Below are positions 29,084-31,085 of a stretch of 64,000 bases of DNA, in pieces. Position numbers and translations under genes: made by a program. Below the pieces are notes generated by a model. That model did not search any database, was not told the origin of the DNA, and worked only from the letters and a program-made list of their open reading frames with translations. Source of the DNA: Kofleriaceae bacterium (lineage in GTDB: Bacteria > Myxococcota_A > Polyangia > Haliangiales > Haliangiaceae); NCBI GenBank assembly GCA_965215005.1, contig CBDCCZ010000061.1, positions 32,001 to 96,000 on the forward strand, given 5' to 3'. The first letter of the stretch is position 1; each line of letters begins with the position of its first letter.

Positions 29084-29089
29084 CGAACG

Positions 29090-29268
29090 GCTGCTCCTTA
29101 GGAGGCGCGCAGGAATAAATGGTCAGAAGATCGGCGTCTGTGCGCCGGGCTGACAAGGCGCTCTGATGGAGTTGGGTCATCCCCAACGACCGAAGAGCAA
29201 CGCCGCCAGCACGGATGCACAGTCGCCTAGAACGGACCATTTATTTTGGAGCGCCGACCTAGAACAGC
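29090..29268 (+). ncRNA. Candidate structured ncRNA: ~180-nt rod-like hairpin (6S RNA-like)
   Basis: Nested stems AATAAATGGTC/GACCATTTATT, GGCG-CTGTGC/GCACAG-CGCC, CCG/CGG, GCTG/CAGC, GGCG/CGCC, CTCT/AGAG and GTTGGG/CCCAAC; G-U pairs favour the + strand. Confidence 0.55.
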
Positions 29269-29278
29269 GCAGGTGGGC

Positions 29279-29500
29279 TCATCGCTCGTCGACGTCGGTG
29301 AAATGCGCGCCGTCGCCGAAGCCTTCGTAGTCGAGCTCGGTCTCGGGGATGCGATACTCGCCGGCAAGCCAGCGGCTCAGGTCGACCATCTGGCAGCGCT
29401 CGGAGCAAAACGGAAACACGCGGTTGTCCGCGCGCGGCGGGCGCGCGTGGCCACAGATGGGGCAGAAGCCCTCGCCCTCAGTCTTTGCGGGTGAGCCCAT
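29279..29500 (-). CDS. yacG: DNA gyrase inhibitor YacG
   Basis: CPICG...[17 protein letters not shown] zinc-binding signature. Confidence 0.9.
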
Positions 29501-31085
29501 AGCGATTCACCTTCTGTAACAGATTCGATCGACTCACGCCGAGCTCCCGCGCGAGCGCGGTGGTGTTGCCCCGCGTGCGCGTCAGCCCTTTGGCAATGAC
29601 CTCCGCCTCCACGCTCTCCACCATGGCGCGCAGGGAACCCTTGCGAAGCGTCGGACGCGTTGGCGCCGCCACCGGAGTGGCCGCTTTGGCCGAGCGGATG
29701 CGCGGCGATAACAGCTCGGGGCCGACTCGCGTGTCGCTCCCCGACAGCACCATTAGCCGTTCAATCTCGTTTTCCAGCTCACGGATGTTGCCGGGCCAGC
29801 CGTAGCGCGCCAGCGCTTCCATGGCCGCCGGCGTGAGCTCGGGAATCTCACTCTTGCCGCTGCCGTGCTTGCGCAGAAAGTGCGTCACCAACATCGGCAG
29901 ATCCTCGAGCCGCTCTCGCAGCGCCGGCATAGTCACTTTGAGAACATTCACCCGATAGAAGAGGTCTTCGCGGAACTGGTTTTTCTCGACCAACGTCGCC
30001 AGGTCTTTGTGGCTCGCCGCGATGATGCGCACGTCGACGCGAACCTCTTTGTTCGCGCCTACCGGCGTCAACGTTCCCTCTTGCAACACCCGCAACAACT
30101 TGACCTGCAACGCGGGCGACATATCGCCGATTTCATCGAGGAAGAATGTGCCGCCATCGGCGACCTCGAACAGGCCCTTCTGATCCTTGACGGCTCCGGT
30201 AAACGAGCCGCGCACGTGGCCGAACAACGCGCTCTCGAGCAGGTTGTCGTTGAACGCCGAGCAGTTCTGCACCACGAACGCCTTCTTAGCGCGCGGACCA
30301 TGGAAATGAATCGCGCGGGCCACCAGCTCCTTGCCAGTGCCGCTCTCGCCCTGAATGAGCACCGTCGACTCCGAGCGCGCGATCTTCTCCAGCAGCGCCA
30401 ACGCCTCGCGCATCGCCGGCGCATCCCCGATGAGCTCGCTAAAGGCGTCGGCCCTTGCCACCGGCTGCGCCGAGGTGCATGCGCGCGCTTGCAGGAAGTG
30501 ACCGAGATCGGCGGCGGCGTACTCGATCAGGCCGCCAGCGATTTCGAGCTCGCGCTCATTCATCCGCGGCACCTCGCTCCACCGCTGCCGATCCTCGGCA
30601 GCCTCTGCTTCGCGTTCGACGGAGTCGTCCTCGCTCGAGCCTGCGCCGAGCTGCCGCACCCCTCGCAACGCCGCGCGCTCATCGCCAGCATCGAGCTCGC
30701 GATGCAAGCTGCCACGCAAGTACAAGAAGCCCACCAGCTCCTGGCCCACCACCACCGGCGCCGAAATCATGTCGAAGCCGAGATGACACGAGTCTACCCG
30801 CCATCCTTCGCGGCTGCGGTGATTGACGCCGAGCTGCGCCAAGCTTTGGGCGCAGCGGGCAGCGCCTTCTTCCGACGCGAGCGCGAGTCGACACAGCTCG
30901 TTGTCGGCCACCGCGAGCCCGCCCTCAGCGTGCTCTGCCGCGTTGCCCGCTGCATCTGCAAGGCCAAGCTCGAGGCCCCACCACTGTCGAGCCAACGTTT
31001 GCACCAAACGCAGGGAATGCAGTTGATCGAAATCGAGATTCAAACGCTCGTCCACGAGGTCCACCGACACCAAAGTGTCGGCCAC
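29478..31085 (-). CDS. Sigma-54-dependent enhancer-binding protein with an N-terminal PocR-like sensor
   Basis: [29 protein letters not shown] and Fis-type HTH; N-terminal C...C...CHLG pattern of PocR. Confidence 0.9.

Follow-up and report, generated by a model that had tools for sequence, protein, structure and literature searches.

The hairpin between a PilZ-domain gene and yacG in the 64,000-nucleotide stretch of Kofleriaceae DNA analysed here (the window) is, with a probability of about 0.9, one copy of a MITE moved by a transposase acting in trans, and not a 6S-like RNA gene. The element is present in multiple copies in its source genome (G000), has sharp ends, terminal inverted repeats and duplicated flanks, and is missing from the same gene junction in relatives; its sister subfamilies have empty sites and ends that match those of autonomous insertion sequences (IS). 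Its middle is conserved while its ends are free to differ, the reverse of a typical MITE, and we infer that this inner rod is a module under selection at the level of the element rather than a host gene.

The PilZ-domain gene (PF07238; 28589-29083, plus strand) lies upstream of the hairpin, and yacG (PF03884; 29279-29500, minus strand) is convergent with it; both are host genes outside the element, and the placement of the rod between them is as an earlier note on this sequence had it. A sigma-54 activator with a PocR-like sensor domain (29478-31085, minus strand) is encoded upstream of yacG, a pairing that is retained in many relatives. Every stem that the earlier note described is found in the window where it was placed: AATAAATGGTC at 29114-29124 pairs perfectly with 29235-29245, the internal bubble (AGAAGATC/TAGAACG) measures 8 x 7 nt, and the apical stem joins GTTGGG (29171-29176) to CCCAAC (29182-29187). 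The region 29085-29275 is predicted to form a single rod with a minimum free energy of -93.5 kcal/mol (z = -6.9), more stable than all of 200 shuffled controls. The minus strand of the same region folds equally (-92.5, z = -7.1), and the raw energy of the hairpin is unexceptional for this GC-rich sequence: when the window was tiled into 710 segments of 180 nt, no fewer than 8 folded lower. The rod-like hairpin is thus real as described, except in its extent. The inner stems belong to the element, but the repeated unit spans only 29101-29258 and the outermost stems are flank: GCTG/CAGC is flanking DNA that is present in one of the six full copies, the pilZ-yacG copy itself, and TAGG/CCTA is mostly target-site flank.

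The MITE is 158 bp long (29101-29258), copy-to-copy similarity ending exactly at these bases. Its left terminal inverted repeat (29101-29124, plus strand) starts with GGAG and contains the AT-rich 11-bp stem, which forms the inner half of the repeats; the right one (29235-29258, minus strand) starts with GTCG on the minus strand. These 24-bp repeats are imperfect, with 18 of 24 bases matching in the pilZ-yacG copy by a hand count. They enclose an inner rod (29125-29234, plus strand) that is common to elements of many phyla and scores 72.5 bits with our covariance model R1, whose training set includes this copy. Within the rod lies a purine-rich conserved core (29154-29203, plus strand) composed of CAAGGCGC, the apical hairpin (29171-29187) and GAGCAACGC. 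Six-frame translation of the element gives at most 52 codons and no transposase gene, and a search of it with an IHF consensus gave no exact match.

A genome-wide search for copy number, as the earlier note had proposed, finds nine dispersed copies: six full copies of 158 bp that differ by 1-6 nt, and three with internal deletions, which measure 120, 119 and 77 bp. They sit at unrelated places, all intergenic by ORF scan (0 of 9 inside genes), and their orientation relative to transcription is plus in three, minus in four and convergent in two; the ORFs behind both of these calls were taken from a codon-bias filter. In four of the nine, including the one at rpsB, the flank overlaps the stop codon of the neighbouring gene. 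Among the six full copies there are nine substitutions at paired sites; six break a pair and none is compensated, as expected under neutral decay.

The flanks carry the signature of a target-site duplication. The left flank, TTA here (29098-29100, plus strand), is TTA or TAA (TWA) in all nine copies, whereas these two triplets together make up 0.4% of positions. The right flank, CTA here (29259-29261, plus strand), is an imperfect duplicate at this locus and equals the left one over 3 bp in six of the nine copies (permutation mean 3.6, p = 0.028). Scored over 4 bp, the flanks match in four of nine, and duplications of 3 and 4 bp are not firmly separated by these counts. Mismatches exceed what clean duplication predicts, at 3 of 9 sites in G000, 9 of 15 in the relative G033 and 9 of 12 in G005 (the last counted by eye). 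The combination of nine dispersed copies with direct flanks in six (p = 0.028) is nonetheless what the earlier note had said would speak against a non-coding RNA. Its broader label of a MITE/REP-type element is upheld for the MITE half, by the copies, terminal inverted repeats and duplication, and fails for the REP half, given a 158-bp unit with IS-like ends.

We compared 29 relatives' yacG loci, in 14 of which pilZ is convergent with yacG, and none of these 14 gaps contains a match to the core model. A base-level empty allele of the insertion site was not seen among the loci compared, and the contigs of three sequencing runs from one study, the closest of which is possibly the source sample, contain no joint that skips the element. 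Among the sequencing runs listed as containing it none was of RNA, and these two results speak neither for the element's mobility nor against it. The only core-model match at the relatives' yacG loci is in G033, where it lies in frame within yacG itself (L322:1359-1520, on G033:C865): an insertion of 159 bp plus a duplicated TCA, 54 additional codons in all, close to where the YacG domain ends. This is an independent event, close to the pilZ-yacG junction. The sister family of G033 to which it belongs has the same GGAG..CGAC ends as the G000 subfamily and TNA-type flanks, with direct 3-bp flank matches in 6 of 15 copies (p = 0.03).

The possibility raised in the earlier note that the rod is a 6S paralog, a decoy for sigma-70 RNA polymerase in a non-canonical place, had some points in its favour. 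The rod and 6S RNA (RF00013) are alike in size and in being a long rod with a single internal bubble; zapA and the 5-FTHF cyclo-ligase gene (L269) abut in G000, leaving no room for a 6S gene between them; and an initial genome-wide RF00013 search was empty. That empty result was a miss. An HMM built from the 6S genes of five relatives recovers a genuine 6S RNA gene at G000:C4:61513-61694 (L292:1014-1195, minus strand) with an E-value of 1.6e-31, and this gene scores 63.7 bits with the Rfam model against a cut-off of 46.4. It is not located between zapA and the 5-FTHF cyclo-ligase gene, and tblastn searches for these two beside the five relatives' 6S loci found neither. Rfam-detectable 6S RNA occurs in 35 of 40 relatives, 33 of which have one match. 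The rod itself is matched neither by RF00013 at E-values up to 10 nor by the relatives' HMM run on the whole genome, and an Rfam scan of the entire window at gathering scores gave no match. Unlike 6S RNA, the rod has a small bubble (8 x 7 nt only), is multi-copy with target duplication, and is mobile. We therefore reject it as a member of RF00013 and regard the decoy reading as extremely improbable; 180-nt rods in GC-rich genomes can mimic 6S RNA. The earlier suggestion of a new stand-alone rod RNA is also unlikely, as the rod is not kept at the junction in the 14 relatives and scans of its ends gave no sigma-70-like promoter and no terminator, the two terminator-like sites detected both lying inside yacG.

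Autonomous IS with matching ends are seen for sister subfamilies. In Vicinamibacterales, the ends of the rods match at 20 of 22 nt a transposase-bearing element of the same genome, which encodes a 465-aa protein with DUF772 and DDE regions whose best NCBIfam match is IS1182, below the cut-off of that model. An IS1182-like element with the same ends directly adjoins one Vicinamibacterales copy (L207:9995-11466), and in each of the complete chromosomes G335-G339 at least 40 copies were scored, among 92-483 candidates. Between two Vicinamibacterales genomes, six true elements were left once false core hits and positions without an alignable ortholog had been dropped, and four of these form filled/empty site pairs, with a net size of 162 bp in three of them and of 211 bp in the fourth. 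At two non-palindromic empty sites, L206:9391 and L206:6226 compared with L216, the target dinucleotide reappears on one side of the inserted element as its reverse complement instead of as a direct copy; palindromes can self-correct by template switching, and this is one possibility for these two sites. Flank duplication is uninformative in this group, 25 of 30 copies being flanked by TA/TA (permutation p = 0.24). Two further IS families appear elsewhere: an IS630-like element has an end that agrees with the G015 rods over as many as 27 of 32 nt, and for L078 the agreement is with an IS5/DUF4096 end, at 18 of 22.

For the G000 subfamily, a search of 146 other genomes of the order found no IS with its ends, and a metagenome search returned one match, which is unrelated. 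Profiles PF01609, PF13586 and PF13340 have no match in G000 (92.8% complete), the best agreement of the subfamily's ends with 11 IS ends is 12 of 22, and the IS630 copies of G000 have ends that differ from those of the MITE. One clue is the target: IS1031 is described as preferring TNA (PMC1676026), and the TNA target of the G000 subfamily likens its mover to the IS1031 group of IS5. By this analogy we lean slightly towards an IS5-family, IS1031-like mover.

Beyond this genome, sequences of relatives match the centre of the element and not its ends. The exact core pattern occurs in at least 108 stretches of a species-level genome collection, and its titled matches (80 among those listed) span at least eight phyla, including Acidobacteriota, Verrucomicrobiota, Nitrospirota, Desulfobacterota, Myxococcota, Gemmatimonadota, Actinomycetota and Pseudomonadota. 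One core match (L076) is on a 3.6-kb contig titled Promethearchaeota, which may be a mis-binned bacterial contig. Within the phylum, the strict pattern is present in 6 of 301 genomes; within the order, the covariance model finds the core in 33 of 61 genomes, with copy numbers from 0 to at least 63 across the 61, and in G000, where 150 of 7385 candidates were scored, at no fewer than 13 places with E below 1e-5. The distance from the core to the end of the element is also kept. After de-duplication there are 66 members; 22 of them have a YTAR-like word 58 nt to the left of the core and 20 have one 55-56 nt to its right, and the positions 56-59 nt to the left collect 43 counts against about 2 per position elsewhere. 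Viral contigs yielded no match to the core pattern; blastn gave no match in plasmids and only 13 chance 21-mers in phages; and Rfam applied to 20 family loci returned a single unrelated SRP RNA.

The core retains its fold as well as its place. Alignment A1 contains 54 of the 66 members (nine were excluded for core length and three by hand), and both sides have changed in 16 of its 20 core pairs, although these members include kin and are not independent. Its paired cells amount to 89%, compared with 63% after shuffling and 29-43% after sliding, and its invariant columns are partly built in because most members were chosen by the exact core pattern. On the plus strand of the core, G-U pairs outnumber A-C pairs by 41 to 14, and the plus strand folds better than the minus strand in 61 of 66 members. 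Both the covariation that the earlier note proposed to look for and the G-U bias that it remarked on are accordingly real for the family core.

These patterns, together with the presence of the core in at least eight phyla, are what one would point to in favour of a structured non-coding RNA present in multiple copies, or a cis-acting element of mRNAs, that serves the host and spreads by means of borrowed IS ends. They can be read otherwise, however: the core columns of the plus strand are G-rich (975 G against 669 C), a composition that alone favours G-U, and the self-correction of palindromes bears on the paired changes. The distribution of copies also speaks against a host RNA. The core has no conserved locus, being absent from the pilZ-yacG gap in all 14 relatives; it is missing from 28 of the 61 genomes searched; and a scan of the protein-coding neighbours of 80 core loci found no recurring gene. 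The occurrence of copies in both orientations within transcripts and their decay without compensation argue in the same direction, and we consider a host RNA role improbable. A different alternative is a REP/REPIN-like element that moves as single-stranded DNA through an HUH enzyme (RAYT/TnpA) that would recognize the core hairpin and cut at a constant distance from it. It would account for a hairpin that is conserved while its arms vary, for a boundary kept 56-59 nt away, for doublet and tandem forms, and for flanks that are imperfect and sometimes inverted. It is difficult to reconcile with ends that agree at almost every base with those of three DDE IS families, with left and right flanks that covary as direct repeats and with the same lack of a recurring gene beside the 80 loci scanned. 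REPs are described as units of 20-40 bp with a GTAG or CGTC tag (PMC3733652), which does not fit the 158-bp unit with its IS-like ends; REP-type movement is in our estimation very unlikely.

A MITE with a conserved middle remains the best explanation, and its life cycle may be sketched as follows. A DDE transposase from an insertion sequence elsewhere would bind the ~24-bp ends in trans, excise or copy the element, and place it at TNA/YTAR-like targets with a duplication of about 3 bp. In DNA of 65% GC, TNA-like sites are often stop codons, which would bring copies to lie immediately downstream of genes. Such copies would then be co-transcribed and might alter mRNA stability, by analogy with ERIC and Correia elements, for which effects of this kind have been reported (PMC2229807, PMC10969869). 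New MITE families would arise when the inner rod becomes enclosed by the ends of another IS.

The fixed spacing and the conserved unpaired purines support a function for the core. The job we tentatively rank first, at somewhat less than even odds, is that it acts as folded single-stranded or cruciform DNA bound by a host protein, helping ends 160 bp apart to pair. It is unlikely, though conceivable, that the core instead works at the RNA level, its fold rendering copies harmless or stabilizing within host mRNAs, and we are equally doubtful that passive inheritance plus palindrome self-correction suffices. A more specific proposal, which we put forward as speculative, is that the inner rod (~110 nt) may be an ancient, selected, cis-acting transposition enhancer for IS5, IS630 and IS1182 transposases, homologous to the centre of ERIC. 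The rod, ~58 nt from each end, would then be recognized in a folded single-stranded form whose internal loops are rich in purines, would have been handed between IS end pairs across at least eight phyla, and could be bound by a conserved host protein.

In its general build the element resembles bacterial MITEs such as RUP, Correia/NEMIS, Chunjie and Nezha, as described in the sources on these families, in being 100-200 bp long and intergenic, with terminal inverted repeats, a short target duplication, a long stem-loop and no transposase; RUP, for example, shares its ends with the autonomous IS630-Spn1 (PMC2229807, PMC10969869, PMC3184786). Unlike typical MITEs, it is GC-rich rather than AT-rich, and its middle is conserved across phyla while its ends switch IS family. 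MITEs of Neisseria, E. coli and Anabaena are described as having cores without similarity to one another (PMC3184786). Rickettsia palindromic elements, which we set beside it by their description as ~150-bp palindromes (PMC2229807), share one trait with the G033 sister copy, its in-frame insertion in yacG; the G000 subfamily differs from them in that its insertion adds 161 bp, a length that would break the reading frame, and in that 9 of 9 copies are intergenic.

The closest comparison is with ERIC (also IRU or RU-1), a 127-bp element of enterobacteria that is likewise a palindromic MITE found behind stop codons and co-transcribed, but has other ends, another length and an extra helix. The element between rpsB and tsf in E. 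coli, which we take to be an ERIC, carries AAGGCG, GGAGC-hairpin-GTGACCG and AACGCA in the same order as the G000 core, and one copy of the G000 MITE also follows rpsB. Its motif score of 26.8 is the highest in 49 kb of E. coli, but 3 of 60 null sequences of that length score as high. Model R1, run against this one E. coli copy, aligns with the apical hairpin only (9.4 bits, E = 0.54), so membership in ERIC over its 127-bp length does not hold. The shared motifs are at most suggestive of kinship between the core and the ERIC centre.

As a single locus, the pilZ-yacG hairpin is an ordinary MITE behind a stop codon. The family is of wider interest, as its fold, loop letters and end distance are kept while the ends switch IS families, in a part of the element that is usually regarded as decayed filler. 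If functional, the core would explain the transposition of very short elements and might provide a role for the long-known ERIC centre. In the open full-text articles searched we found no description of a MITE core shared across phyla; multicopy sequences reported from Geobacter (PMC2700814, PMC2996986), as far as these reports describe them, may include members of the family.

Other repeats of G000 and variant forms of the rod were also observed. A second, older core-bearing subfamily in G000 has different ends, GCGCC..GGCGC, and is represented at C18:302304, C42:272424, C6:55627, C54:32838, C4:175328, C49:202586 and C1:20520. A third repeat family of this genome, exemplified by C60:108865-109036, is about 150 bp long, flanked by CTAG and without the core, and gives 80 blastn matches. 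Six loci (L102, L104, L117, L128, L139 and L152), from Longimicrobiales/Gemmatimonadota where titled, carry behind the core a variable cassette of ~70 nt with TGTAAA-N6-TTTACA-like palindromes, which we presume to resemble the boxes of TyrR-type regulators; a similar word also follows a half element at G000:C51:11297. Doublets with two inverted cores are seen at L051, L069, L077, L093, L107, L115, L118 and L122, and L022, L075, L168 and L172 have the core, or the entire element, repeated head to tail.
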